This document shows, piece by piece, positions 6,627 through 59,479 of a stretch of DNA of 62,337 nucleotides. Numbering within the stretch: position 1 is the first letter of the stretch; every line of letters begins with the position of its first letter. The notes beneath the pieces were generated by a model that was not told where the DNA came from, did no database searches, and saw only the letters and a list, made by a program, of their open reading frames with translations. Origin of the DNA: Nemertoderma westbladi (Eukaryota > Animalia > Xenacoelomorpha); the NCBI GenBank assembly GCA_032718475.1, contig JAUCBJ010005100.1:1-62337 (forward strand). The letters are read 5' to 3'. The translations under genes were made by a program, and so were the position numbers.

Positions 6627-7706
6627 CTGTTAGAAATTTATGACAGTTTTATATAAATTTGAATGATGGTAGATCATAAGTGGGACATATCAGGGACAAT
6701 TCAATTTTTTGGGGGAATCCCATTCCCTGCCCCAAAAGTATCACATAAAATAATAACATTTTAATCAATACTGAACTTTACCAAAACTAATATATCCTGA
6801 GTAACTAAAATATATAACTAAATCTGCTACTACTTGGTCGAGATGAGATTATTCCAAACAATTTAATTTCTCCAAATTCCAGCATTCCTTTCAGGTTGGT
6901 TTTATATAAGTGAGAGACTGTGCGTGATCCACATGAATGCAGGAATCACACTGGTCGACAGAAAAGAACATCTAGCATGACCTCGTCATTAATTATCCTG
7001 CAGTGCTGAATATACAAAATAAACGGAATACAGTGATAACAGTCCGCTTTTAGATAGTCTGCGACTTGCTCGGCAGTGACTGATAATTCTCGGCAACCAA
7101 AATATGAACATGGGCCTTGTTGGCCTGAATGTTAGCGTGTCGTTGAGCTACTCGTAATCACGTTCACTGATGGTTTCCACGCATATTGGTACTACCAACG
7201 TGGTTGGTTGGGTTATTGCTGGTGGGACCGGGGGGCCCCCTATTTCGGGCGTTCCGGTAGGTTGGATGAGTGACCAGTGAGGTTGTATCCCTTCCGGAAC
7301 CAATTTCGGCATTGTGGTATGGTGTTTGGTTGTCCGTTGTTGGCGGAGAAGATGAAGAGTGGTTGATTGAGCGTTGGTGGTACGTGTCTATTTTCTCCTT
7401 TGTTATGAGTTCTATAACTTATCTTTCGCAGCTATTGAATCCAGTTGGGGCTTCGTTAATTTTTCCTAGAGAAACTGTGAAGAGGGAGCTCACCTGCATT
7501 AGAGTTTCTGTGATCAACCTTTCATGCTCTTTTTCCATTAAATATATTTTACAGTGTCTATGATGATGCTTTGAGGTTGAATATACATATATGTATTATC
7601 ATATATATCATTATATGTATACAATATGTATTCCTCTGCCATACTACCAGTAGTGATTATTATCAGTTCAATAATTATTAAAGTTATATATATATATATA
7701 TATATA

Positions 7707-7860
7707 CCTTGGATATAGTTGTCTTCTTCACAGATCATTTTCACAGATTCGATCCTATCATGTGCCACTGGAAGGAGAGGGTCCCAACTCTGAACTCCTG
7801 GGTATAATATCTTACTATAAAGAGCGGTTCCATAGTTGACATCTCTGAAAGGCAATGGAA
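7707..7860 (-). pseudogene. Candidate exon of the same host gene (crystallin-like motif)
   Basis: A GC-richer island in AT-rich DNA ending at an AG|GTATAT donor. It reads GTALYSKILYPG..AHDRIESVKMIC, resembling 'LY...Y.G....D.I.S[VI]K'. Confidence 0.4.
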
Positions 7861-7999
7861 TATTTTTTTGTTACATGCTTGTCTATTGATCAGATTTTTC
7901 GATCAATATCAACACTTCGGATGGATCATGGATGTTGAAAACATAAAAACAATATGTATATTTAGTTAGCTTTAATTCTTCACTTAACTATTGAAGTTG

Positions 8000-8830
8000 T
8001 TTTACAAAACATATTCAGAACATATTCGACTGTGCCGGAAATGTCAATTACATAAGAGATTCCCAACTTCCCACATCTTACAGCCATTATCATTCCAAAA
8101 ACGACTATCAGTAGATGTCGTGAAGGACTTCACATTGACTTCAAATGGGAATTCTAAGATACTAACAACTATCGACAACCTGAGTAAATTTGCTTGGTTA
8201 ATTCCTATTTGTGATGAACAAGCATCAAATGTCGCGAAATAATCCGATCAAGGATCAAACTTCCTTTCTGATCTTATAAAAGAAATTAAAGATATCTTTG
8301 GTTTCACTTACATTGCTCCATCTGCGTATCATCATCAAGGTAATGGAGCCGTATGCACATCCAAATGTTAGCTCTTACCTTTGAAAATCATTCAGATTGG
8401 GAAACACTACTTCCAGCTGTGACTTTAAATTATAACACTGCAATTATAACACAGTAGTACACACAAAAACCCCATTCTTTCTGATGTTTGGTCGTCAAGC
8501 TATCGATACCAATAAATTCGAACATCCCTTTAGTTTACTAGCTGATATTACTAATTATCCTCAACAACTTCGAGCTCGTTTAACCCGAGCACATAAAATC
8601 GCAAATAAATTTATTGACCAGTCTCAACATTGTCAACTTATGACAGACACATGGGAACAATGTGTAAAGAAAAATCCACCCCTGTTCACACTAGATCAGC
8701 AAGTACTTTTATCGCACTATCAAACATGAAAGTAATAAAACTATAAAGTCGCTGGATGGGCCCATTCATTATTCAACAGGTCTTAAACCCCCATGCTTTC
8801 CTTATACACCCAAAGCGTAAACAACCTACA
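8000..8830 (+). pseudogene. Degenerate Ty3/Gypsy (or Ginger)-type integrase
   Basis: Broken frames read CRKCQ..RLSVDVV..NGNSKILTTIDNLSKFAWLIPI..SDQGSNFLS..SAYHHQGNG..W..LLP..YNT..PFFLMFGR..RWMGPF, i.e. the zinc finger end, the DDE core and the GPF motif. Confidence 0.85.
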
Positions 8831-8989
8831 AGTCGAATGACTGTGTAAAATGTAAATAAAAAAAACATGTGTAAAAAAAACATTGCATATATATTACATA
8901 TATTAGTATTCATCATGGTATCTTATGTAAATACATACTCATCGTTGTATCTTATTATAGTGAATCTAAATTCTAGAATTTAGATAAGA

Positions 8990-10020
8990 GGGAGCGAACA
9001 AAAAAAATGTGCTGATATCATTGGACTATTTCGTTCTGTTAAAGCGAAGAAGTGTGTAAACAACAAGGGTGAGGAACAAATCAACGATATGCTCATGAAG
9101 ATGTCATCCTTGTACACAAATGTGTTTGACAAACTGGTGGCAGCCAGGAAAGAAACGATAGAATCTAAAATCGAATTGATCAAACATAAGATAGAAATGC
9201 AAACCAGACCTCTGTATTCGATAGTTGTACAGGCCCATGTTCCTGTCACCAATCCAATGAATGACACTCAAAAACGAGCTGATGCCCAGAACACAGTCCC
9301 AAGTCCATCGTCAATGACTCGACGAAGATCATATATCCATATAGGACGTGTCAGCCTTGATGATTTGGAAGAATCAGTATCAGAATACATATAAACTCTG
9401 GAAATCCCGACTGTGAAACACGTGCTCTCTCCAAGAATATCCTGAAAATATGGGCAGATCATTTCATGTGGTATGAGATCAGGATCACCAGTCCGAAATA
9501 ATGAATCTGGACGACTGGGAAAGAAGAATTACAATAAAAAAACTATAGATTGTCCAATGCTGATCGAACAAAGTTTTTTCTGCAAACAAGACAACAATTC
9601 CAGTCCCAGGCTCCGTCTGGTGTACAAGATTGTGAAGACAATCACAATCAAATAAACCCGGAGAATTGACTAAACTTTACACTTTCTCTATGGAATATTG
9701 AGGGGCTATCAAACCGACAGTCGAAATTAAACTCACACAAACTATTTATGTGCATGTGGTTCTTCTAACTGAAACGTTTCATACAAGTTCAACTTTAGAG
9801 AACTCGTCTTACTACTCTTTTGTACAACCTGCCGACAAACCAAGTTGAGGGCGACATTCCGGTGGACTTGTAATTCATTGTAAACCATGCTTAGACCCGC
9901 ATCTAATTTCATCCTGCCCAGAATACATTGTTGTTGAATCAGATGTAGTCACATTTATAGTATTTATAGGACTACCTCAAATCTCAAACTCCACCATTTC
10001 CATTATTAATAGTCCTATTC
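8990..10020 (+). pseudogene. Degenerate LINE: ORF1 C-terminus plus AP-endonuclease start
   Basis: ORF1-like sequence (YIHIGRVS..V.EYI) is followed by endonuclease-like motifs (WNIEG, LLTETF, GRHSGGL, IYRTP-like), all broken by stops and frameshifts. Confidence 0.55.
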
Positions 10021-10266
10021 GAAAACATCAAAAAGTGAACTTAAAGATAGATATAATTGGGTATAGTAGTCCTCACATGGAACAGAACAAGACGAGGAAA
10101 ACTAGCAAACTAGATCCCAACCTATTTGTGAACTTGGTTGACTCAGACCTATATACATACATATCTGAATGGTATTGATTGTAGTAAAAAGAAAGCTTCT
10201 CTTCTCACCATGCTGGAGAATAGGAACAAATCCATGGCGGATAACCAACTGTACTGGACGGAACGA

Positions 10267-10452
10267 ATATTCATCACGGTATCTTACATAAATACATATT
10301 CATCACGGTATCTTACATAAATACATATTCATCACGGTATCTTACATAAATACATGTTCATCATGGTATCTTACATAAATACATGTTCATCATGGTATCT
10401 TACATAAATATGTATTCATTGCAGTATCTTACGTAAATACATATTCATCGTA
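10267..10452. repeat. Minisatellite, ~29-bp unit ATATTCATCACGGTATCTTACATAAATAC, about 6 copies
   Basis: Direct tandem copies. A related ~2-copy array lies at ~8905-8957. Confidence 0.9.
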
Positions 10453-10999
10453 ATATGTTCGTATGAGGAATACTGTATGCTTTCTATTGATATAAGCCAC
10501 GAGTGAAATGATTGAGATTTAATGTGTATTTGAATCGAAAAATTATCAGATCACTGGGTAATGACATCAAATATGTAGCAGCCAATCACAGCCGATTTTC
10601 AAAATTGGTTTCCCACGCCTCCTTAAACCCGCCATTTCGACCGTTTCCTCGTGGTTTTACAAAAAACACACCCCGCCACTCGATTCAGGGCATCTTCTTA
10701 CTTACTCCATATTCATTAGTATCTAGCCCAAAAAAATTTCGCACACCAACCCTATACATAAAGGACGAATTCTAGCGATTACAGCATCAATAAAAAATGT
10801 TTTCTAGAACATACTAACACTTTCTAAGTAGTTACCCGTTGAAATACATTAGATAGATAATCGTAGTTTTTGATACCTGGATTAAAATATGGCTTTTTAT
10901 AAAATGCTATATCTCAAAAACGGCACAACAGATTTTGAAAAAAAAATTTAGCAGCGGTTTTCTGTCATCCATATCTATCGTTTTATAAAATAAAAATAT

Positions 11000-11419
11000 T
11001 GCCTCCAGGGGTCGTATGATACATTTGTCCTTCCGCGTATATTTAGTATTCCCATCATCCCTAGCCAATACATTTTTGACATTAGTGTCTATGCCAACCC
11101 AGCAGTATAATGGGAATCTGGAATTGCTGGGATAATCATAATAAAATGCGCTTTGAGTATGCCGAGTGTAGAAAAGCACTATATAAATAATCAATATTAT
11201 CATTATTATTATTAATATTCATCATATGCAATATTATTGATATGCAATTGTTTCATAAATTATAAATTACATACTGAAATAGTTGAAAAGGGAAAGCACC
11301 AGTTATGACTGCTCCACTGTAACGGTTCTTTAGAACTCCAATGTCAGGTGAATCACATCTTGAATTGAAATCCACATCCTCTTCACCAACAGGGGAATTG
11401 CATGTCATATAAACATCCC
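11000..11419 (-). other. Two candidate exons of the unidentified host gene
   Basis: The acceptor ttacattgcAG opens GDVYMTCNSPVGEEDVDFNSRCDSPDIGVLKNRYSGAVIT. After a short AT-rich intron-like gap, a second acceptor opens VLFYTRHTQSAFYYDYPSNSRFPLYCWVG. The donor positions are ambiguous. Confidence 0.4.
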
Positions 11420-12155
11420 CTGCAATGTAAATAATGTGTACTACCACAAGAAAGCATAAACCTTTGTTAATATATTTTGTAATAATAATAATAATACAAT
11501 TTGATGGATTATTTAAATCCTGATTTTGTACAGGGGGATCAGTATTGTTACGCTAGGTCTGTTAACCCACTAGCTCGTATATAAACCATATAAATCATAC
11601 CGCGGCAAGTTGCGGTATTTAGGACTGTCAGCGATAGTTAGGATTCGCTGCGCGGGGATTGTTTTCCCGTGAGTTTGGTTTGTTACTGTAACTGTATATC
11701 TGCTTCACCGGTTAGAGGACAGGTTTCCTTTTGTCTAGTTCATAGGCATTAGACCCGCTCACGTACATAGAATAGACACTAGGCTCTGCTCCTCGCCAGT
11801 AGTCGTTTGTGTATTGTATCTGTTTGTTTAGATACCCTGGACTGGGATTTGTTGTCAGGTACTGAATATTACTGCTAATACTAAAACTGTTAATATTATT
11901 GCTAGAATATTACATATTTTATTATATACTTTGTTAGTTTTATTTGTACCGGTTAGGGTATATATATGATATATATATATATATCAAGGTAAGTTTGACA
12001 TTTGGACATTTTGACATTTCGACATTCTGACTTTGTTGATTTATTTGTACCGGTTAGGGTATATATATGCTATATATATACCAAGATAAGTTTGACATTT
12101 CGACATTCCGATACTTTGACATTTTATTACCCGTACTTGACGTATATAATAAGAC

Positions 12156-15100
12156 ATGAGTGACACACCACATTCGACTCGACACCCACCTACCGACTAT
12201 GACTCGTGCGACCCGGACAGATCGACAGTAGACGAACCGAGAAGGAGAACCCGAGATTCCACAAATGTCACACCGTGTGCGTCGCCGGTACCCCGAACGG
12301 AAATACGGGAAGCCGCAATGCGAGGCGACGGCAGGATTGAGTATTTCCTTACAGTCCCGCAGACCAGGTCACGGGAACCAGACATGGTAAGCTTGGCGGG
12401 AAGCCAAGAAAATGTCATTAGAAGTATAGGAGGACACATGGCCTAGATTACTCGAAACCTCGGAGAAGGTTTTCGCGTTTTACGCGTGTTAACCGCCCCG
12501 ATGTCGAGATACGAGTTCTACACCTTACAGGTAAGGATAGAGAGTAGGGTACATGCCTCCGTAGATAAACTTAAAGGTTTACACGAACTTGCAGAGTTGC
12601 GTGGCGACAACTTTACTCAGGTAAAGATAATAGATAAGTTGGTAAGTGCGAGGGAAAGCCTTATCCAGTTTAAGTCAGTAATAAGATTGGCTCAACAGGA
12701 GCAGTTCGACCAACTGCTAGGTGAGTCAGTTTCTGACACATTGTTACAACCCGAAGAGGAAGAAGAACTATACTGCCTGGACGGGAGGTTAGAGACGCTC
12801 ACCAATTTTCTTCGTAGAAACGGCGTACCGATCGAAGAACCGGAAATCGAACCGCGAGGGACGACGGAAGTTCTTACTACGGAAGGCTTGCGAGCCTACC
12901 AAAATCCACCACTGGATAGATCGTTCGTTAGTGTGTGGAGCGACGTTGGCGACGTTAGTAGGACAACGTCTGTAATTACTCGACAATAACAGAAAGTTGC
13001 ACGCCGACAACAAGTCGTCGAGGAAGAAGCGCAATGGCAGATGGCACAGATCGCCATCGCGGGAGAGAAACAGCAAAGAGAGGACGAGGCAAGGATTGCG
13101 CAACTCAAAGCGCAAGCAGAATTCGAAGCCTTAGAACTGAGAAGACTGGAGGAAGATTTGGCACAAGAAGCTGCAGCCGACGAATTAGCACGAGTTGCGA
13201 CAGTAAACGCAGCGGAGTTAGCTCGGAAGAAAGCGGCATCTGACGCACGCGCCAAGTTGGAAGTGAGACAAATTAACGCACGATTGGCTATACAAGAAGC
13301 AGAGTTAGCGGCACAACAACAAGTAGCAGATCGACGCGAAACGGAGATGCAACTACAGTTCGAACTAAATCGTAGATCACGCGAGGCAGCGAACGCGCAA
13401 GCGGACTTCGAAATCGACGCGAGAGATAGATCTATAAGATCGCGAGCTGGACACGACTTGTCTGCCCTGGATCGCATGGAAGCTCGATATCGCAGGATAC
13501 AGAAGTGAATCGAGGAAGGAAGTGTGGGAGCGATAGATCGAGGAGAGGAGTTCGTCGAGGATTACTGCAAACGTTTTCCACAAGTGATTCCTATGCTGAA
13601 ACCTACAACTCCGATAAAACCGGTCTTTGTTACGAAACCTAAAGAAATAATACCTGTGCGCTCGGCGCAAGGTAACAGGTTTGTTGTGATGGAAATACCA
13701 CAACCTAGGGCAACTTCATCGCCAATTTTAGCAGGTAATGTAAATAGTCCACCTACAGTTAGTCATAGTCTACCTTTAGGAAGAGAGGAACCTGCGTTTA
13801 TGACAATTAAACAGGTAAGTAAGCTGTTAGCAGTTAAACCTGTGACGTGCTGTGCGAACCCAGTTATTTATAGACCGACTACGAAACCCGACTGTTTTAT
13901 TCAACCTTTGACACAATGTTCGACGCGACCTACGACTTCGTGGAAGGCTTGCGAGCCTACCGAACAACAGAGGAGGATGGATGTGGGTAGTACCCACGGG
14001 ATCGAACAATGTTTAACGAGCCCTACGACTTCGTGGAAGGCTTGCGAGCCTACCGAACGACGGAGAACCGTAGATTCTAGACCTCAACGTACTCGACAAA
14101 AGGTAATACGCCGGACGCGAACCCACCGACCACCTTATCCGGATGATAGCGACTCATCAAGCGACTCGGAGTCGACAGAACGGAAAATATTCCGTACTGG
14201 AGAGGCAGCAGCGGCAGCGGATTACAAATGGGAGGAAGGATCGACGAATCCATACATCGACAATCCTTCACACGAGAAACACCTTTGCGGAAACCCACGT
14301 TGCAACCAGTGGAAGCGATCAGCAGCAACAGACTCGCCGAAATGATGCGACCTGTAACGGACCGACTAGCTCAACTCGAAGAACGACTCGAAGCACAACC
14401 GTCGGATCGATCGTGAACCAGCGTGGAGTTAGAACAACCTAGACAACATCGACCACCAAGGAGAGAACAGGAGACTAGACAGACTCTGACCCATCGAGAA
14501 GAAGATCCCGTTAATATTTCCTACCGACAAACAACGCGCGGAAGGGAATGAATGGACAACGCAACCAAACAAGGATGCGGACAGTTAGATTTAGTTAGCG
14601 AGATTGCGAAGTTCGCGGCTAGACACGGATTACCGGCATAAAAACCGACGAAGTTCTCTGGCAATGTGAAACACTGGCGTACACTGGTAGACTACGTAGA
14701 GTCCCAGATCGCTAAGTGTGCTTTCACCTCGACGGAGAAGTTTAATTACTTGCTCCAAGTCCTGTCTGGTGAGCCGAAACGATTAGCGGAAACCTTCATT
14801 GGTGTTCCAGATGCCTTTGAGTTGGCGTACGACCGTCTATATTCGATTTACGGCGGCAACGTCGCCATGGCTAAATCCATTATCGAAGACCTCTGCAGAG
14901 GAGGCAGTATTTTGAAACCGATCGATCTTCTGCGACTCGTGGACGAAATCAAGAACGCTATAGGGACTTTACGGTCCATTGGACAACTCGAATACGCTAA
15001 CGCACCGACAGTTCTCATTCGAATAATCGGTAGACTTCATCATCGACTACGACGAGAATGGCGATGCATCGAGTAGCAGCGTGAAGAAGCCGGCGGGCTA

Positions 15101-17007: not shown

Positions 17008-17049
17008 AACCCAAACCCCTAACCGAGAGAGGCCAAACCCGTGGAGGTT

Positions 17050-17468
17050 AGGGGCCAAACCCCTAACCGAGAGAGAACACAAGGAGTGAAGGGAAACACT
17101 CCAAAGGGTGCCAACAGGGATATTAGCCAATGGGGGGAAGGCATCGGCTAGGTAATGTAATACGGCCAAACCGTGCAATATATATTACCAGTTGACTGCA
17201 TCAGTTATCTCAGTTATCAGTTAGTCAGATCAGTTAGGGTGGAGCGGCAACATCTATTACTGTCCACTACCGCCACCACATCATTCAATCAGTGTTTACC
17301 GGTATATCAGTTATCATCAGTTTAACCGTGCTTGCATTACTCATTTTATTATACTTATACTTATGAACTCCAGAACTTTCAACTTAACTGACCCTTTTCA
17401 TACACACGGCGGGGACGCGTAAATAGACAAACCCAACGGATAAATCGGGATCCGTAGATCCCGTCACA
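17050..17468 (+). repeat. 5' LTR of A (5'-truncated)
   Basis: Matches ~23728-24146 with about five substitutions by eye. A TATA-like AATATATATTA at ~17177 is followed by TCAGTT initiator-like motifs. Confidence 0.92.
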
Positions 17469-17559
17469 GTAATAGATTTCCAGCTGCCCGAAACTGAACT
17501 CTGAACTGAAGTAATAGATTCCAACAGCCCGAACTGACTGCTAGCCACCAAGAGAAAGG

Positions 17560-20500
17560 ATGAGTCGAGAAGAGAAGACGACACCGCCGCGGACCCCGGG
17601 CGACGATCTAACGATCCGTGAGGCCGCGACGCAACGATACGGACCCACGACACCGGTCGATGCTACGTCGACCAGGTCGACGCCGGTTGACGCCACGTCG
17701 ATAACGAGCAACGGTCGGGAACCAAGATGTGGGGGGTCGTCTACGACGAGAGAGCGAGTCGAGTAGAGGAGAGAGTGAGACGGGAGAGGAGAGAGACGAG
17801 TCGACACAGGGCGGCGGTCGATATGCCGATGTCGCCGGCCAGCCACAGGCCGAGGGCGACGAACGGCCCACCAGAACGGCAACGGTGGAGCCGATGGTAC
17901 GACGTCGGACCCGGAGGGAGAGAGGAGTGCGGTACACTTACAGTACGTACAGCAACCGTACGGGCGAGGGGGGTAGTAGTAGTACGTTAGGAAATGTTGG
18001 TATTAATAGTACCGTAGTAGATAACCCTAATCCCTTTATTACAGGAAATATTTTACCCGGTAATTCAAATTCAAATAATAATATTAATTCAAATATTCAG
18101 AATAATTCAAATAATTCGAATAATAATTTAAATTTTGAAAATAATAACAACTCTAATTTAAATAATTTAAATAATAATCCCGTTTCAAATTCTAATAATT
18201 TAATTGATTTAACAAATAATATTGGGAATGGTGCTATTAATATGAGCGTGTCAGACGTGTATAGCCCGGCAGACGGCGGCCTGGTAGGCCACGTAGTTAG
18301 TGGGCAGGAGGTGGCGGGGTTGAGACAACCCGACGGCGGCCTGGTAGGCCACGTAGTTGGTAGGCAGGAGGTAGCGGGGTTGAGCCAACCCGAGGTGGGC
18401 CTGGTAGGCCTCGCAGTAGTAGAGAGAGAGGCGGGGGTGAATAGACCCAGCCGTAGTAGAGATAGTGTGTCGACTAGAGAGGGGTGTAGAAGTGGAGTAA
18501 GAGATGGTGAAGTTAGATGTGGCGAGTGGGGGGGGGGGGGGGCTACAGGAGCCCTATCACGGAAGATTAGTGGCAAGAGAAGGGGGGTGGAAAATGTCCG
18601 ACAAGAGGGACGCAGAATTGTAGTAAGAGATAGTGAAGTTAGAAGTGGCGGGTGGGGGGGGGGGGGGCTACGGGCCCCCCACCACGAGAGATTAGTAGCG
18701 AGAGAGGGGGGGCAGAGAGTGTCCCACAGGCGTCGGCGGATAATGCGCGGGCCGAGTTAGGTAAACCGCAACACCCGGCGATGGAGAATAATAGGGGGAT
18801 TGCGAGTATCCCCAGCGGCGTGCGATCGAACAGAGAGAGACAGGTTGACGTCGCGAGAGGGCGGGCGACGAAACGTCGAGCCCAGTCAGAAGAGAGAAGA
18901 TTAGTAGAGTTTATTAGAGAGGTCGAAGATAGAAGAAGATTAGCAGAGTTTAGCCGAGAGGTCGAAGAGAACAGGAGTGAAGATAATAGAAGAGTCGTTG
19001 CTAGGGGCAACCGGAGAGCGAGGACGGATAGCGAGCCGTCGATAGTAGAGATGGAGTTAGGGAGTCAGTGGGGTCGAACTTCGGGAGATTGCCGTCGCCC
19101 CGGAGAAATGCACCGCACGCCAAGAGAGTGGTACAGGACGTACCGGTACGAAGAAGAGAACAGGAGAGGGGATCGAGGGGAAGCTTCCCGACGGGATGTA
19201 GCTGCCGATCGAGAGTACGGTAGTCGCGGGGAGATTCGAGATTCGCGAAGAATAAACTTCGGTTCGGAAGGGCACATGCAGACTGCAGGACATACTGTAG
19301 GCCTTACTGCACATACTATTATAGGCCATGCTGGGAGAGATAGAGTAGGCGATAGGGTAGCGCGAACGATGGGATTAAACCCGGAAGTCGCGGAGTACAT
19401 ACCGGTAGGTAGGCGAGAGGTAGGTAGGCCTATATCGGTACAGCAGCATGACTATAATACACAGGGACATAACATATATCCAGGGGAGGGGAGAGTTATT
19501 GTAGATAGATGTATGGGCCCCAATATATTAACATCAACCCCAGTACCAAACATACCGGTGGGGGGGGGGGGGGACAGGGTGACATTCCCCCATTACAATA
19601 TCAACAATATACCCCAATAGGAGCAAGAACATCGAACCCCTTGGACGAGAACAGGTCGTGCGACACGGAAATATGGAGGGGGCCGTTACCCCCAATGATA
19701 TATCCGACGCAACAAATAAAATCAACAGATAGGACGGACGGACCGCACCCAATAGGAGAGTCTGTACAACATCCATCGAACCCATTGGAAGCGCAAGCGA
19801 TGGGAATGGCCACATTAATCGATGCATTAAAGACCAGGATCGAGTTACCACCAGTCGAGCCATTTAAATTCGACGGAAGTAGGCCGGAAGAATACCTGCA
19901 GTTTCGGCGCATGTACAGCAACGAGATATTAAGTAAGAACTTGACGCAGGCGGAGTGCCTAAAATATCTGCAAGTATATACAGGAGGCCCAGCATACGAC
20001 ATCGTGAGGCAATACCAGGGCATCGAGGGCGGCTTCACGACAGCATGGCGGGCGTTAGATAGGGAGTACGGGCACCCAGCCAAGATCATCCGGCAAACCC
20101 TGAGAGGCATAACATCGGGTGGCCTACAGGATAATCCCGTTAGCATAAAGACCTTTGCGAATAAGGTCGAGAAGGCGTTAATCGTACTGAAGACGCTAGA
20201 CGCACCATACGAACTCAACGCGTCTAACAACATCACCACGATAGCGCAGGCACTGCCGATCTGGCTGCGGAGAAAGTGGAGGAAGATCGCCTTCTCCACT
20301 CGAGAGAAGAAAGGTGCGGAACCGGGCCTAGAAGAAATGTCGAGCTTCCTAAACTATGAAGCCGAATTAATTACAGACCCAGTCTATAGTGAGGATAGTT
20401 TGGGGAAGGCACCAAAGACCGAATACAACAGGCCTGGACCCGAACATAATCCGACAGACCCATTCTCGGGAGTGGGACAGTCACTACCACATGCGGCCAC

Positions 20501-22043
20501 ACAGGGGACTGCTAGTCCACAGTTAGCTGGTAGTAGGGCCACACCGTGGCGGGCACAGAAAGAAAATAACACCATAAATAAACATAATCCCAATGTACCC
20601 AGTAGGCCGAATACAGACAACCAAAACACTAAATCGATACATATAAACCTACGCGCGATACGTGAGGGACTATACAGGGAACGCTATAATCCAGGATTCG
20701 AATGTCAATTACACCGGGACGGAACCCATAAGACCAGGAGTTGTAAGCACTGGCAAGCGTTGCCCAAACAAGATCGTGTAGCCTACACAGACGCAAACGG
20801 ACTATGTCATCGATGTGTGGTAGAAGGACACAGACCCGGAGAGTGTAGAGAAACAGCAGCAAGAGAGGAGGAGACTGGAGGCCAAACAGCAGCTAGAAGC
20901 ACTATAGAAGAGGAGAAGAAGAGAAAAGTACTACTCGGGGTAGTACCAGTGAAGATATCAGGAGAGGGCGGTCGATCAGTAACGACATTAATGCTGGTCG
21001 ACAGCGGAGCAGCCTTCACGCTGGTGGAGAACTGGGTGGCCGAAGAGATAGGGCTAAAGACGAGGCCGAACAGAATGGCGGTAACTACCGTCTCGAGTAA
21101 AGATGAGGTCCTGGAGACGAGGACGGGGCGGTGCAGGATAGCAGCGATTGCACCGGGATGCGACTATGGGGCGACGATCGACCCCATCCACATCATCGAA
21201 TCGATAAACATCAACGCCAGGCGACCAACCAACGTTGAGGTCGAGCAGTACAGATTCCTGGAGGGTATCGATTTCTCAATACCAAAGGTGGACGTTAGGA
21301 AGGTGTCCATTATAGTAGGAATGGACTGCCCGACGGCCCATGAGAGAATGAAGACGGTCTTCGGCGAAGACAGGCAGCGGGACCCGACGGCGATCCTCAC
21401 GCCGTTCGGATGGACGCTTAGCGGCCCAGTTAAAACCAACATCCCATGCAGTGTGACAGAGACATCTGGGTGCATGATACCAGGCACCGAAGACGCAGAG
21501 GAAGTAGAGGAGAAACAAGAGATAGTAGAGCCAAATAGGGAGGTGACGGTAAGAAAGTTGGCAGAGGAGAGTAGGTTTCCCAGCAAGCATCGGTATGGAG
21601 ATGGACCGGAGCGGACGGCGAGGTGTCCGGAGGACAACACTCCGGGGGAGTGCCCGGAGGAGTGTCGGAAGGAGTGTCTAAAGGAGTGTCCAGAGGAATG
21701 TCCGGAAGAGACGCAGGTCCGGTTTGGAGGCATACCGACAAGGGGGAAGTCGAGAAGGAAGGCAGGATGGAAAGGGATAGGACTATTATTCTACCTTCTG
21801 TTCTGCCTGTTCTTTCACTTTCTATTCATTCTGCCGGCGGGAGACAACAAGGAGGGAGGTGGCATTTTGATGCCAGGAGATGAGCTAGTTAAGAAGGCGG
21901 CGGAGAGACCCGATTTCAGGGTGGCAGAAGAGGGAGAACCAATTCCTGGTGAGATGGAATTGGCGAAGAGAGTGCGGCGAATCCTACAGGACCTACAAGA
22001 GCAGCAGTGGGAGAGTGCCTGTTGGAAGAATCGCCCTAGTTAG
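17560..22043 (+). CDS. gag: Element A Gag-protease polyprotein, with frame breaks mostly at poly-G runs
   Basis: An N-rich and R/G/E-rich N-terminus is followed by LPPVEPFKFDG..YLQF (BEL capsid-like), the knuckles CQLHRDGTHKTRSC and CHRCVVEGHRPGEC, the protease LVDSGA, and AILTPFGWTLSGP. Confidence 0.85.
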
Positions 22044-22254
22044 GAGATTTAGTCGTCCAATATTTTGGACTGAGGGGGGTGGGAATGAGGGCGAGACGCC
22101 CTTCCCACAAAAATAATTATTTAATTTAAATAAACAATAATAAATAATTAAATAATTAAAAATAATAGTTAGTAGAAGTAAGAAGTAGTAAGGTAGAAGT
22201 ATAGTAGGTTAGAAGGCGGCAGAGTATAGGGAGTGTGGTATAAACATACCACGG

Positions 22255-23000
22255 GAGTAGAGGGTACGTAGTACCGGGAGTTAAGTTAGAAGGCGGCGGG
22301 GTAAGGGAGTGTGGCATATTGTCATGCCACGAGTAGTAGTAGGGGGGTCGTGGGCACCGGAAGCGCCACGTAGAAAGTAGCAGTGGTAGAGAGGTTGTGG
22401 GCACCGGAAGCGCCACGTAGAAAGTAGTAAGAGAGGGGTTATGGGCACCGGAAGCGCCACGTAGAAAGTAGTACGAGAGAGTGGTTGTGGGCACCGGAAG
22501 CGCCACGTAGAAAGTAGTAGCAGAGAGTGGTTGTGGGCACCGCAAGCGCCACGTAGATAGAGGTGGTGAAAGAGTGGTTGTGGGCACCGCAAGCGCCACG
22601 TAGAGAGTAGAAAGGGGTAGACTAAGTATAGTTAGAGTTAGTAGAGAGTTAGAGGGTTTTAGTTAAAGTAGTAGTAGAGTGGTTGTGGGCATCGTTAGCG
22701 CCACGTAGATGGAGGTAGAGTTAGTAAGAGGGTACGTAGTACCGGTTGTGGTTGTGGGCACCGTTAGCGCCACGTAGATGGAGGTAGAGTTAGTAAGAGG
22801 GTATGTAGTACCGGTTGTGGTTGTGGGCACCGTTAGCGCCACATAGATGGAGGTAGAGTTAGTAAGAGGGTACGTAGTACCGGTTGTGGTTGTGGGCACC
22901 GTTAGCGCCACGTAGATAGAGGCAGAGTTAGTAAGAGGTTTTTAGTTAGAAGTAGTAGTAGAATGGTTGTGGGCACCACAAGCGCCACGTAGATGGAGGA
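22255..23000 (+). repeat. Internal tandem array of A (~46-bp, then 69-bp units; GTGGGCACC..AGCGCCAC core x11)
   Basis: Eleven cores counted between 22350 and 22992. The 69-bp units also carry GGTACGTAGTACC. Confidence 0.9.
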
Positions 23001-23588
23001 TTTTAGTCAGAGTTAGAAAAGAGTTAGTAGACTTAGTAGTAGAGTTAGAGAGTTCTAGTTAGAGTTAGTAGAAAGTTAGAGGCTTTTAGTTAGAGCTAAA
23101 AGTAGTAAGAGTTAGCAGAGAGTAGAGTTAGTAGTTAGTAGAGTTAGGAGTTAGTTAGAGTTAGAGAAGCTAGATAGTTAGCAAGTTAGACCTTAGATAA
23201 GGTAGATAGTATGATAGCACAGGGGTAGCATTAGAGGTCAGGACCTTAGAGAGTGGCAGGGAGTAGAGAGGAGATAGTGAAAGGAGCTGTTGGCGAGAGA
23301 GAAGTGTGCGATTCAGGTGTGGGGAGAGGGTAAGAGCGAGTTGAGTTAGAGAGCGGAGTTAGAGTGGTAAGAGTGCCGGGGAAACAAAAATTGTGTGAGA
23401 GAAGCGCACGATCGGCCCGACACGAGGCGCCAGAGGGTAGTGACATCATACCCATAGGGAGCGGCCTGGAAAGCCGACTCCAAGAAAATAGATCCACCCC
23501 ACACCCGATAATAGATCGAGTTCCAGCGGAATTGTAGCGCACTTTAGTTGGATGCTATCTTCTTACCGGGAAGATAGCATGGGGGGGG

Positions 23589-24146
23589 TGTTAGCTTATC
23601 CAATCCCGCTAACCAAACCCCATAGAGTGAGCCGTTAAGCCGTTAAGCAATATTGGGAGCACGAGGTTGATTACCCAACCTTGTGTCACCCCAATCAAGT
23701 GGGAAGGAGAAACACACAACGAGGGTCAGGGGCCAAACCCCTAACCGAGAGAGAACACAAGGAGTGAAGGGAAACACTCCAAAGGGTGCCAACAGTGATA
23801 TTAGCCAATGGGGGGAAGGCATCGGCTAGGTAATGTAATACGGCCAAACTGTGCAATATATATTACCAGTTGACTGCATCAGTTATCTCAGTTATCAGTT
23901 AGTCAGATCAGTTAGGGTGGAGCGGCAACATCTATTACCGTCCACTACCGCCACCACATCATTCAATCAGTATTTACCGGTATATCAGTTATCATCAGTT
24001 TAACCGTGCTTGCATTACTCATTTTATTATACTTATACTTATGAACTCCAGAACTCTCAACTTAACTGACCCTTTTCATACACACGGCGGGGACGCGTAA
24101 ATAGACAAACCCAACGGATAAATCGGGATCCGTAGATCCCGTCACA
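23589..24146 (+). repeat. 3' LTR of A (558 bp, TG...CA)
   Basis: Follows the PPT GGGGGGGG (23581-23588), begins TGTTAG and ends GTCACA. The host IN tail (VQRLVLLEETRNETGDY) resumes immediately after it. Confidence 0.92.
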
Positions 24147-24972: not shown

Positions 24973-27900
24973 ATGGCGGAGAAGATTTATAAGGAGTTAC
25001 GACAGGGGTTTACACAGGAACAGGAGCACCAGGCGCCGTTTAATCGTTATGGAGCTAAAAACTTTAGTGTGTTTGGGTGGAGAGTATGGCTAGGAGTACA
25101 GCCAAGCTCGCTAAATCCAAGGCGGACCCGAATGTTACAAAACAGCGATTGGACGCTTATAACAAAAGAGCGGAGGAATTACACGCGGAGTTTAATGCAT
25201 TGTATCCCTACGATGCGTTATGCAACGCCAGTGACATTTGCGAGGATCCAGACACGGAGATACGCCGATTATATCATACGCTGCAATATTTGATGGTGAA
25301 CGAACCCTTACCTGCAGCTAGGGACGAATTCGAAGGAATGCATCTTTATAGACGCGCTCGAGGAGCGGATCCAGAGACAAAGGACGCATTCTCCATATAC
25401 AAACTGTTTTACAAATGTGGAGCATGTATGCGCAAGCAAGACAACGCGATTCCTATGCGATTGAACTCGGAAAACCCCGAGCCGATATTTGTGCGATGCT
25501 CATACCACCAAAGTCTGCGTTACCAAGAAGGCGGATACCCTTTGACGAATCCATACCATTCGTTCAAGATGAGTGGACCGAATGCAGGTGAGATCGTTAT
25601 TTACGAACCCAAATTATTCGAACCAGACGTCTACAATATGGTAGTGGATGAGTCTAATAAGTCGACGCAAGAGAAACGGGAAGCTTTGAGCCTCTACAGG
25701 GCCTACAAGGCATACGAGAAAGGCGAGATCGAGGAGTTCGGCGGAAGGCTCGCGAGCCTACCATTTTACTGGATATCCCACGATCAAACCGTACCTAAGG
25801 AGATGACACCCGAGCTCTTCGATAGTATCACCTTTACTCAGCGTTTGTCGCAGAGACTACAGATACCTCATGTCGAGATGACGCGAGAACCTCAGCCCCA
25901 TCCTACTAAAGCGATAGTACCGGTCGCGAGACCAACCAGCTTTCCTATTAGTATACCGGCCCGAGAGGAGACAACTTATGAGATTCCTATAGTTGAACAC
26001 CCGGAGATCATTTCGAACCGGGATTTCCTCCCATCGGTTACCTTTGGTGATGTGTTAGAGTCAGCCGAGTTGCGTAGAACGATAGTACAGAAAATCGTAC
26101 GCAACGTGCCTCCACATATTACGGACTTTAAGGAAGTGAATCGCGCGGGGACGGATATCGCACCTTGTATCTTGCGAGGATATCTAACGAAAATGATTCG
26201 ATTATGTATTGGAGTCGGAACGTTTGAGACCGACACCGATATTGCGACCAATTGGACCAGTAAACCTATTAGTTTCGATGATGAAAAGTCAATAGGGAGA
26301 ATTTGGAACCCTACCGACGATTTACTCTACGATTGGGACACGACTAGCCGATCTCTGAAGGAGAATGGTTATATGTTTTACGATAAAGAAGGCCATGGAA
26401 GAGGATCGATTGCCTACGCCATACGTGGATACTAGACCATTGTTGCTTTGGGCTATTGAGCAAGGATATTTTAGGGAGTATAACACGCTAAAAACTGGAA
26501 CGGGTTATATCTCATACCTAATGTTTAGTTGGGATTATAAGGAGAGTAAGAGGAGCAAATACACGGACGTATACGGAGAGGGAGATACCCCCGGCATAAA
26601 CGAGTTCGAGTTACAGCTAAAGTGGCGAGGTTGCGTGTGTACTGGGCGATTACCTCACCTCCACGAATAATCTTGCAATACTATTTGGCGATAGAATCTT
26701 CGGTAAACGTTTGCTTCATCGCCGATGTAGTGTCTAGGACTCTAAAGTGACATCCGTTATGTCTCGGTGAAGGACATACCTTTTACGATGGAGGAAGGAT
26801 GCATACTGATGTATTCCGCCGATTTCTCCAACCCTTTTATAACACCAATGCGCACTGCGAAGTTTTCACGCGAGCGGGACTTAGCGTTTTCAGGGACGTC
26901 TATCTCACTCACGCAGGAAGCCTAGTCGACAGACCGTCGATGTTAACGTTAGTACCCTACGATGGGGAACGCAACGCGGAATTCAAAGGCCCGGAAGGAT
27001 CCTGGAAGGCTCGCAAGCCTACCACCCATCATGACGATGTGGATCTGACCGAGTTTGCGATAATAGACGAACCGTTGTGGCAACTCATAGAGATAGAGGA
27101 GAACCTTCCGAGGAAGACGCGAACTAAGATACGCGAGTTGGAGAAAAGCGATGCCATGGTTTGTGTACAACCTACGGATACGAACATACCGACTGACCCG
27201 GATGATGAGAATTATCACGTGGACAGTAGCTCTCGCCCCATCGGAGATCTTATCTATGAGCGAGTTTGCTACCCTGCCAACACTATTTGTAGCAGATGCG
27301 GGGCAACTGGCCACCACGCAAAGAAATGCGGAGCGAAACATATATCTCTACCGGACTTAGTATGTTACTGGTGCGGGGATCAACGTTCGCACACTTTCTA
27401 CACCTGCTGGCGTTTCGTGGCGCAGTGCACGTATTGTAATATTAAAGGTCATAGGGCATCCGAATGTCAACTTAGGGACATCCCCTATGAGCATATGTCA
27501 GTTAAAATCATTCGACAGCTATTCAACCATTGGGAGAATCTAGCAGACGAGCATGTATCGACACAGCGACGCCATTTCCCTATGAGAGCACACTTGGGAT
27601 TTTGGGCCGTAAACCCTCTCATAATGTCGAAAGAAGGATACGTGTCAGCTATGCCTCAATACGATGCACTCTTGGAGGTGCTGGATATATTGCCATTGGA
27701 TAGCGGATTTAAGGTTGTGCGGGACTACTTTCTGCAGGTACACCCCGACAACAAGAACACTTGGAACTTTCAAACTGTGGTGAACAAGATTACCGCAGGG
27801 GAATTCGACAAATTGCGAGTCGAACAGCAGAATCGAGGAGCCTGGCATTCGATAGCTTGGGCATACCGGAGCGAATTTTATCACAAATGTGTAACCTCGT

Positions 27901-28442
27901 GTATTCTAGACGAGACGGACGTTTTGCGTGAGACTGGCTTCAAGGCCACGCCGTTAGCCGAAAAGACGCGTCACCCACAGGATGATCCACAACTTCGTAT
28001 ACTTAGAGCCCAGAAGGCCGGACAAGAGATAAAGAAGGTAGTAAATGTCGCTGAGAGGACGACATCGAAGTCGCAAATCCGGATGACTCGAGGCACGGTT
28101 TCCATCGCTAGAGAACCGCGCGGAGGGACAGGATTCGCTTTGCCAGAACCCATTAGAATTCAGACGACGTCAGAGAGCGAGGTGTCTGCGGACGGAACAG
28201 TCCCACCCTTTCGACTTCCTCCCAGCATTGTGGAGACTCGATCCGATGTTAAGCCAACAATTGGAATCGGACGAGGATTTAGAGGACTGAGCGCACGACG
28301 GATGTGCGAAACTCCCGTCGTCCCCTTTCCTAGCATTTTGGAACCACCGACAGCTCGACACCGAAGTCCGAGTCCAGTTCGATCCCGACCACCACCCAAT
28401 CGTATTAGAGGGCGTAGACTAACCTGTTCGACCAAGGAATAG
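24973..28442 (+). pseudogene. Element B extra 3' ORF: Cys/His N-domain, DEDDy-exonuclease-like domain, 3 CCHC knuckles and a conserved C-domain (frameshifted)
   Basis: Pieces 24973, 25077, 26365 and 26799 align end to end with D 43302-45804 (GMHLYRR.RG.D.ET..FS.YKLFYKCG.CM.KQD; VDT..LLLWA; LQYYL..ES; KPIGDLIYER-like; GFWAV.P; TWNF). Confidence 0.8.
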
Positions 28443-29227: not shown

Positions 29228-29300
29228 ATGGCGTAGTGGTCAGATGGTTAAGGCATTGGTTGCATTACAGATAGGTTACGAGTTCGAATCCCAGTCGGGA
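29228..29300 (+). other. tRNA-derived sequence (Pol III A/B boxes); pseudo-tRNA or SINE head
   Basis: An A-box-like TGGCGTAGTGG/TGGTCAGATGG and a B-box GAGTTCGAATCC lie ~45 nt apart. The acceptor and anticodon stems do not pair cleanly. Confidence 0.6.
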
Positions 29301-51709: not shown

Positions 51710-52240
51710 TGTGACGGGATCCAGGGAGGATCCCGGTTTATCCGGTTTGTTAATTCACGCGTCCCCGCCGTGTGTGAAGAGTGAAAGGGTTTACGTTGTT
51801 TGTCGCATATAATGTTCAGGTATAAGATATAGATATATATATATGATGTCGTACACAGAAGGCGGGAAACGGTAATTAAAGTCCCGGTCCTTCCCTAGCT
51901 AAACTAACTAACCTAACTAGCACCAATATGATACTGAGATAACTGAACTGAAATGATTACTGCCAACTGGCTATATTGCACGGGTGGCCTAATTACTCTA
52001 CCTAATCGATGCCTTTCCCCCCTCTGATTGGTTGATACCCTTGTTGGCGCCCTTTGGAGTGTTCCCGTTCACTCCACCTGTTCTCTCTCTGTTAGGGGTT
52101 TGGCCCCTGACCCTCGTTGTGTGTTTCTCCTTCCCATTTTGTTGGGGTGACACGAGTGATTGGTTATCCAATTTCATGGCCCCCAATATTGCTTATCGGC
52201 TTAACTTTATGGGGTGTTAGCGGAATTGAATAAGCTAACA
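51710..52240 (-). repeat. 3' LTR of C (531 bp)
   Basis: The minus strand reads PPT GGGGGGGAG|TGTTAGC ... GATCCCGTCACA, homologous to the A LTR. Confidence 0.9.
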
Positions 52241-55338: not shown

Positions 55339-58300
55339 CTAAGGTGCCCCTTCTAACAGACAGCATTTCCCTACAGCTCTCCTGTAGGTTTTTCTGTCCT
55401 TTGCACCTATCTTACCACCTATCTGCACTTCTACCGATCGGACTCTTCCGTCCTCATCGGAGTAAGTGCCTACAACTCTCGCCAACCGCCACTGGTTGTT
55501 GATGATAGTATCATCCGTAACGATTACGAGATCTCCATCTCTTAACTCCCTATTCGGCTTCCTCCACTTGCTTCTTTTATGGAGCGTGGGTAGGTATTCT
55601 TCTACCCACCTCCTCCAATACTCTGCGCTTATTGCTTTAGTGACTTTCCAACTCTGGCGGGAGTGTATGTCATCTGGTTCTACACCCCGCATATCGATGG
55701 TCGCTGGCCTTTCCATCAGAAAGTGGCTAGGCGTCAGCACGTCTAGTGACTCAGGGTCATCATTCTCCGGATATAGCGGTCTGCTATTAATGATCCCCTC
55801 GCACTTCGCAAGCACTGTCCGTAAGACGTCCTCAGTGACCATGTGGTTGTTCATTAGCTTCGTCATTAGACGCTTTGAACTGCCCACCAGTCTCTCGACG
55901 CATCCTAGTGTATGTGGTGCATACGGCATCCTTCTCTCCCACTTTACTTGTCGTCGTCTCATGCCCGCCCTGACTTCCTCCCCTTCCAAGATGTCCAAGG
56001 CCTCTGCCATCTCATTCTCTGCGCCCACAAAGTTGGTGCCGTTGTCGCTGTATATCACTGCGATCGTCCCACCTTTGCGGTCTCTAAACCTTTCTAATGC
56101 ATTAATGAATGCTGATGCGGTTGCATCTTGGGCGAGTTCTATCCCTACCGCCCGCGTGTTGTTACATATGAAGATGATACCGTAGCGTTTCTCCGTGTGC
56201 CGCATCACCTTGATCTTTATCGGCCCGAACATGTCCACACCGCAATGCGTAAATGGCGGGTCGTGCTGTCTTACTCTACTCGCTGGTAGTGGCGCCATCT
56301 CTTGTATGGCTCGCTCCTTCTTCGCTCGTCGGCAGGTCTGGCACTGCCCCACTACCGCTTTCACCTTCTTCCTCAACTGTTTGACCCAAAAGGTCCTCCT
56401 TATCTCCGTGAGAGTTCTGTTGGTGCCCCCGTGCAATATCGACTTATGGGAGTCCCAGATAATCTGGTGAACTATTGGCGATCCTGTTGGAATGATGATG
56501 GGTATCGGTGGTACGATTATGCTGTTGTTGTATCCCACCCTAGAATTCATTACTAGAATTCCGTCGTCATTAAGTTGTGGTGACAGCGTGATCAGCTCGC
56601 TGTCCCGTCGAAGGTGCTGTTGGTTACCGACGCGTTCCACCTCGTCGCCATAGTTCTTCCGTTGTTCATAGCGGATGACTGCCTTGGCCGCTCCTTCCAG
56701 ATCTATGGATGTCCTGATCTTCTTGTCTTTGCCGACTCCCGCGAGGAAATTCCCGAAGGCTCTCCAGTACGCCACTAATTTCTTGGTCTTATACCAACTA
56801 GAACTGTAGCTGAGGAGTTTATCCGTCGGGTTATCGCATAGTTCTTGTTTTGGTTGCACGTCCCTAATCTCCCTCACCATCTGGGAGTATATCTCTTCTC
56901 CCTCTGAATCTCCCTCTTCTCCCTCTGACACTACTTCTGAGCCCGGGTCCACCTTTCTCATCGGCGGCCAGGCCTCCTTATCGCTCAGAAATTGTGGCCC
57001 GTGTTGCCACAATCCTTCCCTTTTTAAGAAAGTGTGGCGTGCCACGCCCCGTGATAACAAGTCCGCTGGGTTCTCATCCATTGGGCAGTTGTGCCACCTT
57101 TCCAATTCTGTGGTCGCCCTTATCTCGTCCACCCTATTTGCGACGAATATTGGGTATCTCGTCCTTTCGTTATGTAGCCAACCAAGCACTACCATGGAGT
57201 CCGTCCAGTAGTGTGTCTCCACTATGTTGGGAATAGTATCCACTAGGTAGGCTGTGGCTCTAACTCCTAGTCTCGCAGCTGTCAATTCTAACTTGGGAAC
57301 TGATGCTGAATCTGGCGGCGTTGACTTTACTTTGCTAAAGGCCAGTCTGGGCTTGTGAGCCCCCTCTCGTTGTACTAAATAGAGTGCCGCTCCGTACGCC
57401 TCCAACGACGCATCGGAGAACATGTGTAGGTCCAGATTCGTCATGTTCCCATCCGGGAAATACACTCGTGGCATGTTGTATGTTCCCATCTTCTCCAAAT
57501 CTCCTGTCCACTTACTCCACTGTTTCTTGATTTCCTCTGGTACCTCTATGTCCCACTCATCCTTCAATTTGTATACTCTCTTGAGTATCTGTTTCCCCGT
57601 GACTAATAATGGGGATGCTAGGCCTAGGGGATCGTATATCCTTGCTATATATGATACATAGCCCCTCTTCGTGTGGATGTCTGCGCCCTCCTGGCTCTGC
57701 TGATACTTCAGTTCGTCTGTCTCCCTGTTCCACACAATTCCCAATGCCTTCTGTTGAGATTCTGTTCTCTTGTTCGCCATGTCTTGCCCTTTGGCTGTTG
57801 TGGGATTATCCATGGTCGATTCTGGTCTCTTGTCCTCTATCGCCTTGATAAATTCTTCCAAACTGGATTGGAATTTGGTCAGGTTAAAGCCGGATCCTTT
57901 TAGGATGTCGCGAACCTCGTGCCCTGTGTCCAGTATCTCCTTAACCGTATTTTGTTGACAAGCCGGCACAGCATTCTTAAAAATGCAGCTGCAATGCAGC
58001 ATGCCGATCCTAGTAGTAACCGTATTTCCAGACTCCATTCCATCGTCTACGTAGAAGCCGCGTCGAATCATATCGACGGCCCTAGTGCTGTATCTATCTT
58101 CCTTCCCCTTCACTGAATCTCTCACTGCCATAGTCGTCGTAAATGAAGACGACTTGGCTCCCATGTTTTGTACTACCATCTTATATGCCGGTATTATCGA
58201 CGGTTCTTCCTCGCCGTTATACCATAAGAAGCGTTGACTGTCGCTATCTTCCTCTGTTACGCGGACTTGGTTGAACATGCCTTCTATGTCACACGTGAAG

Positions 58301-59479
58301 GCGTGTTTCCCATTTCTAAATCTAAGTAGGACCTCTATGCCCGAGTTGTATATGTTTGGACCTTCTAACAGATAGTCGTTTAAGCATTTTCCGTTGGTCT
58401 TTGCTGATGCGTCAACTACCATCCGCAGTTTACCTTTCTTTGGGTCTAAAGCCACGTGCGAGTGGCAGGTAATATGTCCTGTCCGTGTTCGGTTCGTCGA
58501 CCGGTAACTCCACGGCCCACCCTTTCTCGACGTACTTCTTAATCGTTCTGTGGATGTACTCATTCTTCTCGGGGCTCCGTTTTAGTGTTTGTTTCAGCTT
58601 GCGGAGTCTCGTGAGTACCATCCCTCTATTATCGGGCAGTGGTATCTTCGGTAGTTTCCATACCATTCCTATGGTGTACCGCCCCTCGTCGCACTTCATA
58701 GACTCCTCCACGCTTTGTAAAGCCTGCTTGTCTTCTACCGAGGTCCCGACCCCGGTCTCTTTCAGTCCCTCGAAATCTTGTCTGAGCAGTCTTTTAAGCT
58801 GCTCCTCTGCTCCCTCATCACCCATTTCCTGCATTGTTCCCGCGAACATGCATCCTGATGTCTCCGACATCCTAAATGGTATCTTGCTCTTGATTGGGCC
58901 ACTCAGCGTCCACCCGAATGGTGTTAATATCGCCACCGGGTCACACTGCTTGTCTTCGCCGAAGACCGTTTGCATTCTTTCGTGGGCCGTTGGGCAGTCC
59001 ATTCCTACTATGATGGATACCTTCCTAACGTCCACATCTGGGATTGAGAAGTCAATGTCGTCCAGGAATTTATATTGCTCGACCTCGATGTTGGTTGGCC
59101 GCCTGGCATTGATATTAATTGACTCTATCACTTGGATGGGGTCGATGGTTGCCCCATAGTCGCATCCCGGTGCCACCGCTGCAATTGCGCACCGTCCGGT
59201 TCTCATCTCCAGGATCTCATCTTTGCTAGAGATGGTTGTTACCGCCATTCTGCTTGGCCTCGTTCTCAATCCTATCTCTTCGGCCACCCATTCCTCGACT
59301 AATGTGAAGGCAGCTCCACTATCAACCAGCATTAGTGTTGTTACTGATCGATTGCCTTCTCCAATCACTCGCACGGGTACTACTCCAAGTAACACCGTTC
59401 CTCTCTTCTTCGCCCCTACGTGCTCGTTGCCATCGTTTGGCCTCTCCTTTGACCGAACTTTACCGGCTTCTCCTTGCAT
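55339..59479 (-). CDS. pol: Element C pol (PR-RT-RNase H-IN), one frameshift near 58450
   Basis: LVDSGA; KLRMVVDAS..DIEGMF..FYVDD; MFSDAS..YWTDS; H..ILHGG..C..C, CGVDMFGP, SDNGTNF, INSRPL and LTPSHFL. Confidence 0.93.
57953..58016 (+). mobile_element. Minimal RTE-type LINE 3' tail insertion with an 11-bp TSD
   Basis: TSD TAACCGTATTT at 57942-57952 and 58017-58027. The insert matches the reverse complement of ~35192-35256 and ends in TAGTAG. Confidence 0.92.

Follow-up and report, generated by a model that had tools for sequence, protein, structure and literature searches.

A BEL/Pao Retrotransposon with a Leader Complementary to Its Own LTR, a Candidate for Self-Primed Reverse Transcription

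Elements of the window and classification of element A

The window, that is, the whole stretch of 62,337 nt that was analyzed, contained several BEL/Pao retrotransposons. Two of them are described here in detail: element A, and its sister element C, which lay on the minus strand with its 5' LTR past the window end and showed 78% DNA identity with A over 2.9 kb. Their main features were as follows.

17046-24146, plus strand: element A, a BEL/Pao LTR retrotransposon without pol
17046..17468, plus strand: 5' LTR of A, truncated at its 5' end, 98.6% identical to 23724-24146 (6 differences in 423)
19509..22043, plus strand: gag-protease ORF of A, with DUF1759, a CCHC knuckle, and an aspartyl protease
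23568..23588, plus strand: polypurine tract, the same tract being present also 5' of the LTR of C
23589..24146, plus strand: complete 3' LTR of A, TG...CA, 558 bp
51710..52240, minus strand: 3' LTR of C, 531 bp, with the site equivalent to the putative primer core of A, TTTAATTAC, at 51880-51872
55339..58581, minus strand: pol ORF of C, with RT, Pao peptidase/RNase H, integrase, and DUF5641

Element A is a member of BEL/Pao. Its 3' LTR had the TG...CA ends and the adjoining polypurine tract, the 5' copy being truncated, and the domains DUF1759, Peptidase_A17, and DUF5641 with the order PR-RT-RH-IN were found in A and C taken together: DUF1759 and the protease came from A, and Peptidase_A17 (E 2.9e-40), an integrase zinc domain, and DUF5641 came from C. 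In LTRs, polypurine tract, gag, PR-RT-RH-IN order, DUF1759, Pao peptidase, and DUF5641, the A/C pair matched Belpaoviridae; the best protein homologs were 31-38% identical. RT, RNase H, and integrase were absent from A, so that A would need enzymes in trans, and the pol of C is the kind of helper that it would need.

The truncated 5' LTR of A was fused to the pol of another element (12.2-17.0 kb), with short duplicated LTR fragments at 17008-17045 between the two, and no target-site duplication was recognizable around A. An LTR pair was not found for the other two BEL/Pao elements of the window. Three BEL/Pao elements had an extra ORF 3' of pol (26751-28442, 44947-45804, and 52950-54050 on the minus strand) with two to three CCHC zinc knuckles and no Pfam match where scanned. 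The 3' LTR of C adjoined a long ORF (48473-51784), preceded by repetitive coding sequence, in which RT-like motifs were recognized by eye; these we take to be of the non-LTR type, and the ORF had no Pfam match. An identical 70-bp stretch occurred in inverted orientation in two different BEL/Pao elements, at 35191-35260, within an ORF that belongs to the element at 33.5-42.5 kb, and at 57949-58018, in frame in the RT region of C; it is probably a small recent insertion. A tandem array at 1284-2205 also matched itself in reverse, with 70-78% identity.

Complementarity between the LTR and the leader of A

The features around the end of the 5' LTR of A, all on the plus strand, were as follows.

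17179..17186, plus strand: TATA-like box GTGCAATATA, common to C, a putative promoter motif judged by its letters
17210..17215, plus strand: TCAGTT initiator-like motif, with the predicted RNA start at A17212
17212..17260, plus strand: predicted self-primer, about 49 nt long, whose helices with the leader contain bulges
17252..17260, plus strand: predicted primer core ATCTATTAC, with the predicted cut after 17260
17261..17274, plus strand: segment past the predicted cut, pairing with the conserved U5 block
17402..17420, plus strand: U5 block CACACGGCGGGGACGCGT, conserved between A and C, the partner of 17261-17274
17446..17463, plus strand: U5 hairpin CGGGATC/GATCCCG adjoining the LTR end (pair probability 0.98)
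17469..17510, plus strand: leader block 1, of which 17469-17477 is the predicted primer-binding site
17511..17549, plus strand: leader block 2, a tandem copy with a second GTAATAGAT from 17511 that can pair with the same LTR segment

The 5' LTR ended in CCCGTCACA up to 17468, and the leader opened with GTAATAGAT (17469-17477). An earlier sequence-only reading of this DNA had noted that no TGG-type primer-binding site follows the 5' LTR, and that the leader, present as a block at both 17469 and 17511, is instead the complement of the element's own LTR, landing exactly on the LTR boundary. All of this was confirmed, and the coordinates given in that reading were correct throughout: GTAATAGAT was the exact reverse complement of ATCTATTAC (17252-17260) and the match began at the first leader base. 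When the full 558-nt LTR was put through 1000 dinucleotide shuffles, three of them reached a 9-nt match from that base; for the duplex formed by the leader's first 30 nt, none of 200 shuffles did better (z -3.7). Contigs from three runs bridged the LTR end and the leader of A (pieces 6, 11, 16, and 27). The proposed extension of the match to 12 bp by TGT/ACA requires T17261; it stood for the 5' LTR copy and failed for the 3' LTR and for C, both of which carry cytosine at that place. Owing to this cytosine in the 3' LTR, only nine contiguous pairs are common to both LTR copies of A. In the family contigs on A, no other letter was listed at 17261, so that the T and cytosine states both exist, and either state put 17260/17261 at a helix junction in the predicted folds.

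The pairing partner had also been placed downstream of the TATA and TCAGTT motifs, near the predicted RNA 5' end, and the positions bore this out. The spacing from the TATA-like box to the initiator-like motif was 31 nt in A (17181 to 17212) as well as in C (51975 to 51944), which is canonical; further TCAGTT copies were present at 17201, 17217, and 17230. Going by this motif spacing, transcription is predicted to start upstream of the junction by 49 nt in A and by 73 nt in C, and the primer of A is predicted to be about 49 nt long rather than 11. No AATAAA was found downstream of the site in A.

Folding gave the core helix a probability of 0.91-0.97 in all five folds that contained both arms. 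The imperfect pairing noted earlier beyond the core appeared as a longer predicted duplex with bulged helices: the piece 17212-17260 gave -35.8 kcal/mol with leader block 1 and -31.7 kcal/mol with block 2, compared with a mean of -14.9 and a best value of -27.0 kcal/mol for the same piece against 285 internal windows. The region 17195-17560 as a whole folded no better than shuffles (z -1.39). The folding signal is a specific long-range helix, not overall stability. The hairpin that the sequence-only reading had described as abutting the site and kept in C with a different loop was recovered by folding, the C counterpart having an 8-bp stem and another loop. On the other side of the predicted cut, the segment equivalent to 17261-17274 paired with the U5 block at a probability of 0.97-0.99 in the 3' LTR copy of A, as CGUCC/CCGCC, and of 0.9 in the copy of C; the pairing was weaker (0.6) in the 5' LTR copy of A.

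Element C kept ATTAC-CGT at the predicted cut and diverged past it, and several family contigs started or stopped at this boundary (51868/51869). The summed contig depth over the LTR of C was hundreds of times that of its flank, a depth that is no copy number; it suggests that the A/C family is large. Two single contigs of one run showed variant leaders past the LTR end, both with a GT start, among the 24 loose contig ends listed. One of the two carried the downstream block of A; in the other, eight of the first nine letters were those of the predicted leader of C, the ninth giving a G-U pair. The expectation that the leader of C, which lies outside the window, should complement the site in its LTR finds partial agreement in this unlinked family contig; among the contigs aligned to the LTR of C and to A, no listed piece spanned either stretch. 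At the LTR end of C, a majority of seven contigs from one run equaled the predicted C leader in its first seven letters, with an agreement of 0.49 and mixed subfamilies and flanks, which is only a hint. A separate search of metagenome contigs with an 18-nt U5 pattern gave 23 loci, none of them matching past 18-19 nt, and these were taken as chance.

Primer-binding sites of tRNA type were sought in the same region. The 18-nt site for tRNA-Arg or tRNA-Gly was absent in A, which had no TGG start, and the best match of its leader to a tRNA 3' end was 1 nt among 42 host-contig and 44 bacterial-contig tRNAs, a partial set from other hosts. ARAGORN found no tRNA in the window. At about 29230-29300, a tRNA-like box B was seen at 29282, with no ARAGORN call; this region is a possible tRNA-derived SINE.

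Priming sites in BEL/Pao relatives

A profile search of genome contigs gave 25 loci (L025-L049) with BEL/Pao pol in prokaryote records, and further searches added loci. The pol of these 25 was of animal type, and they are most likely host contigs binned into those assemblies. Viral contigs gave no relative with the pol of C as query and one marginal match with an alignment. Altogether, 54 loci (L024-L049 and L050-L077; many overlapping or re-fetched) were screened, and 44 were dropped for lack of a usable LTR end and leader. The 10 distinct relatives with a defined LTR end and leader comprised four with TGG, one of decayed tRNA type, and five with self-pairing. TGG lay within 4 nt of the LTR in L033, L050, L065, and L066, and the leader of L050 matched a tRNA-Lys over 17 nt. 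In these elements the match to the own LTR at offset 0 was 3-4 nt (L033, L050, and L065) or 6 nt through a T run (L066). L062, with a tRNA-Lys match over 9 nt and an own-LTR match of 8 nt at offset 4 (p 0.067), was read as having a decayed tRNA site. Self-matches comparable to that of A were absent from all five of these elements. The L033 element (7262-13241), which had LTRs of 206 bp, a TGG site, and a duplicated target of 5 bp, stood inside a 1.4-Mb Wolbachia chromosome record, as either a real insertion or an assembly chimera.

The five self-pairing relatives (L029, L028, L051, L046, and L041) had no TGG and showed an 11-base pairing with their own LTR, each with different letters. In L029, 11 nt paired directly at offset 4 (1 of 1000 shuffles). 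In the other four, 8 nt paired without splicing, in every case directly 3' of an AG with a pyrimidine-rich tract (0.65-0.88), and joining one strong donor extended the pairing from 8 to 11 nt (1 of 14 donors in L028, 1 of 16 in L051, 1 of 2 in L046, and 1 of 5 in L041); for comparison, 1.8-5.6% of all GT positions would give 11 nt. The 11-bp pairing in these four elements is predicted, on the basis of sequence motifs, to need the removal of an LTR intron. The sisters L028 and L051 shared this predicted donor, and the exon end CAC facing leader GTG in one versus TAA facing TTA in the other is a compensatory change across the junction. The unspliced matches of the four were individually modest (p 0.012-0.15, the L041 value coming from 232 of 1047 LTR nt). 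The effect of splicing on duplex energy was small in L028 (-25.1 vs. -22.1) and L051 (-21.3 vs. -20.1) and large in L046 (-22.6 vs. -10.7). With A included, all six self-pairing elements had a pairing whose end fell on the LTR boundary or no more than 4 nt away from it, and its length was 11 bp in five of them. The acceptor AG is absent before the site of A, so that no intron is needed there. In both L028 (1000-1770) and L051 (1000-1862), AATAAA followed directly past the predicted cut, which would leave a strand-transfer repeat of only a few tens of bases.

A quick tree of 44 rows was computed under LG+G4, leaving out L025, L027, L034, L038, L056, L057, L062, and L067 (short, weak, or redundant) and L070 (no match). 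The five self-pairing relatives fell within a supported 34-row set, on at least two separate branches. C formed a long branch (1.4) outside this set, with weak placement; since the five lie inside the supported set and C does not, it is not their close kin. One state change suffices on this tree, but the branch separating the TGG elements from all others had a support of 24, or 37 with C added, so that a single and a repeated origin both fit.

Priming of A in comparison with known systems

In Tf1, the RNA's first 11 bases anneal to the primer site and are released by RNase H, according to the accessible parts of PMC7175516 and PMC4600332. Element A has no tRNA-type site and a site complementary to its own LTR, and on these grounds it probably primes reverse transcription in the Tf1 manner, with a 5' piece of its own RNA; the priming step itself we infer from the DNA. 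The Tf1-like geometry proposed in the sequence-only reading is supported by these same features, and it recurred, spelled in different letters, in five of the 10 further BEL/Pao elements, the four TGG elements having no comparable match. Transcription would start near 17212, and the RNA would fold back on itself, bringing 17252-17260 into pairing with 17469-17477. It would then be cut after 17260 by a nuclease, which the analogy with Tf1 suggests to be the RNase H encoded by a helper such as C. From the 3' end released in this way, synthesis of minus-strand strong-stop DNA would run over 17468 and as far back as 17261. This DNA would then jump to the RNA 3' end, and the transcript of the 3' LTR would serve to restore the promoter and the primer segment. 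In the four relatives with a predicted LTR intron, the 11-bp pairing would form only once that intron had been removed.

Other origins of the complementarity were weighed against this reading. The LTR-leader pairing might be selected for a structural role (hiding a 5' poly(A) signal, packaging, dimer formation, or translation control) while another molecule primes. The long, multi-segment duplex and the duplicated leader block would fit such a role, and the leaders of A, L041, and L046 open right past the LTR with GT, resembling a splice donor. However, the pairing adheres to the LTR boundary in all self-pairing elements, mostly at a length of 11 bp, and it is missing from the four TGG elements, and no other primer site is visible; we therefore regard a purely structural role as unlikely. 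An accidental inverted duplication by template switch, or chance, could have left a defective copy with an LTR complement in its leader, and A is indeed rearranged, with its pol deleted, its 5' LTR truncated, and LTR fragments at its left junction. Against this, the LTR end and leader are bridged by contigs of three runs, variant leaders keep the downstream block, and the geometry recurs in unrelated elements, which makes an accident very unlikely. Priming by half of a host tRNA or by some other small RNA fragment, with an incidental LTR match, has a precedent in Ty1/copia lineages in the accessible text of PMC6317226, and the leader of A reached 10-11 nt on some tRNAs when G-U pairs were allowed. 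Strict pairing there was 6 nt, however, and the G-U values were at the level of TGG controls at unrelated sites (8-12 nt); moreover, the site varies within the family, and the LTR of A tracks A's own letters, so that we give such a primer hardly any weight.

Beyond A itself, we tentatively suggest, at somewhat less than even confidence, that much of BEL/Pao swapped tRNA priming for self-priming, repeatedly or early and with long 5' primers, and that the spliceosome builds the primer in several lineages. As part of the same tentative reading, splicing of the LTR intron may gate reverse transcription, the unspliced 3' LTR keeping the intron. Self-priming has been demonstrated for Tf1 and predicted in a few gypsy and copia lineages, and BEL/Pao replication is described as tRNA-primed and is poorly understood. 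If self-priming of A is true, this mode would occur in all three superfamilies of LTR retrotransposons; elements would no longer depend on host tRNAs and might also escape silencing by tRNA fragments, and they would be overlooked or ranked low by annotation tools that demand a tRNA site. In the relatives, the predicted building of a primer by splicing would connect splicing with reverse transcription in a new way.

In the literature searched, we found no report of self-priming in BEL/Pao, in agreement with the earlier remark that none was known; supplements, subscription papers, Repbase, and GyDB lay outside the search, and an earlier mention is possible. The accessible parts of PMC3118150, PMC12440569, PMC11117352, PMC6238403, and PMC5408684 yielded no primer discussion, those of PMC3601003, PMC8220671, and PMC12451622 only general primer remarks, and those of PMC13524379 only gypsy tRNA sites. 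The ICTV profile of Belpaoviridae describes replication as primed by tRNA, with a site of 18 nt for host tRNA-Arg or tRNA-Gly (PMC8742986), whereas A is without such a site. As far as the accessible text of PMC6317226 and PMC4600332 goes, self-priming has been reported in Tf1/sushi, and there are predictions of it for Tcn1 and TAR. For Tcn1 (gypsy) and TAR/Houba/Osr-1 (copia), which belong to other superfamilies than A, the prediction comes from complementarity alone, as in A; the criterion in the part of PMC6317226 consulted is at least 10 bp within 0-5 nt of the LTR, and the nine pairs of A are one short.

Element A shows a close likeness to Tf1/Tf2 from Schizosaccharomyces pombe, to Tj1, and to the Tf1/sushi group, for which the accessible sources describe a primer site complementary to the own 5' RNA and no tRNA site; the U5 stem-loop beside the primer site of A may be a further likeness, and the 11-nt length in Tf1 recurs as 11 bp in the five BEL/Pao relatives. 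Tf1/sushi elements are of Ty3/gypsy chromovirus ancestry, whereas A has BEL/Pao domains; A therefore would work like Tf1 but is not a Tf1/sushi member. The predicted primer would also differ, as it is the first 11 nt in Tf1 but some 49 nt by prediction in A or 73 nt in C, with nine contiguous pairs in A. Unlike Tf1, A has a duplicated leader block, and four of the relatives have a pairing that is predicted to be built by splicing.
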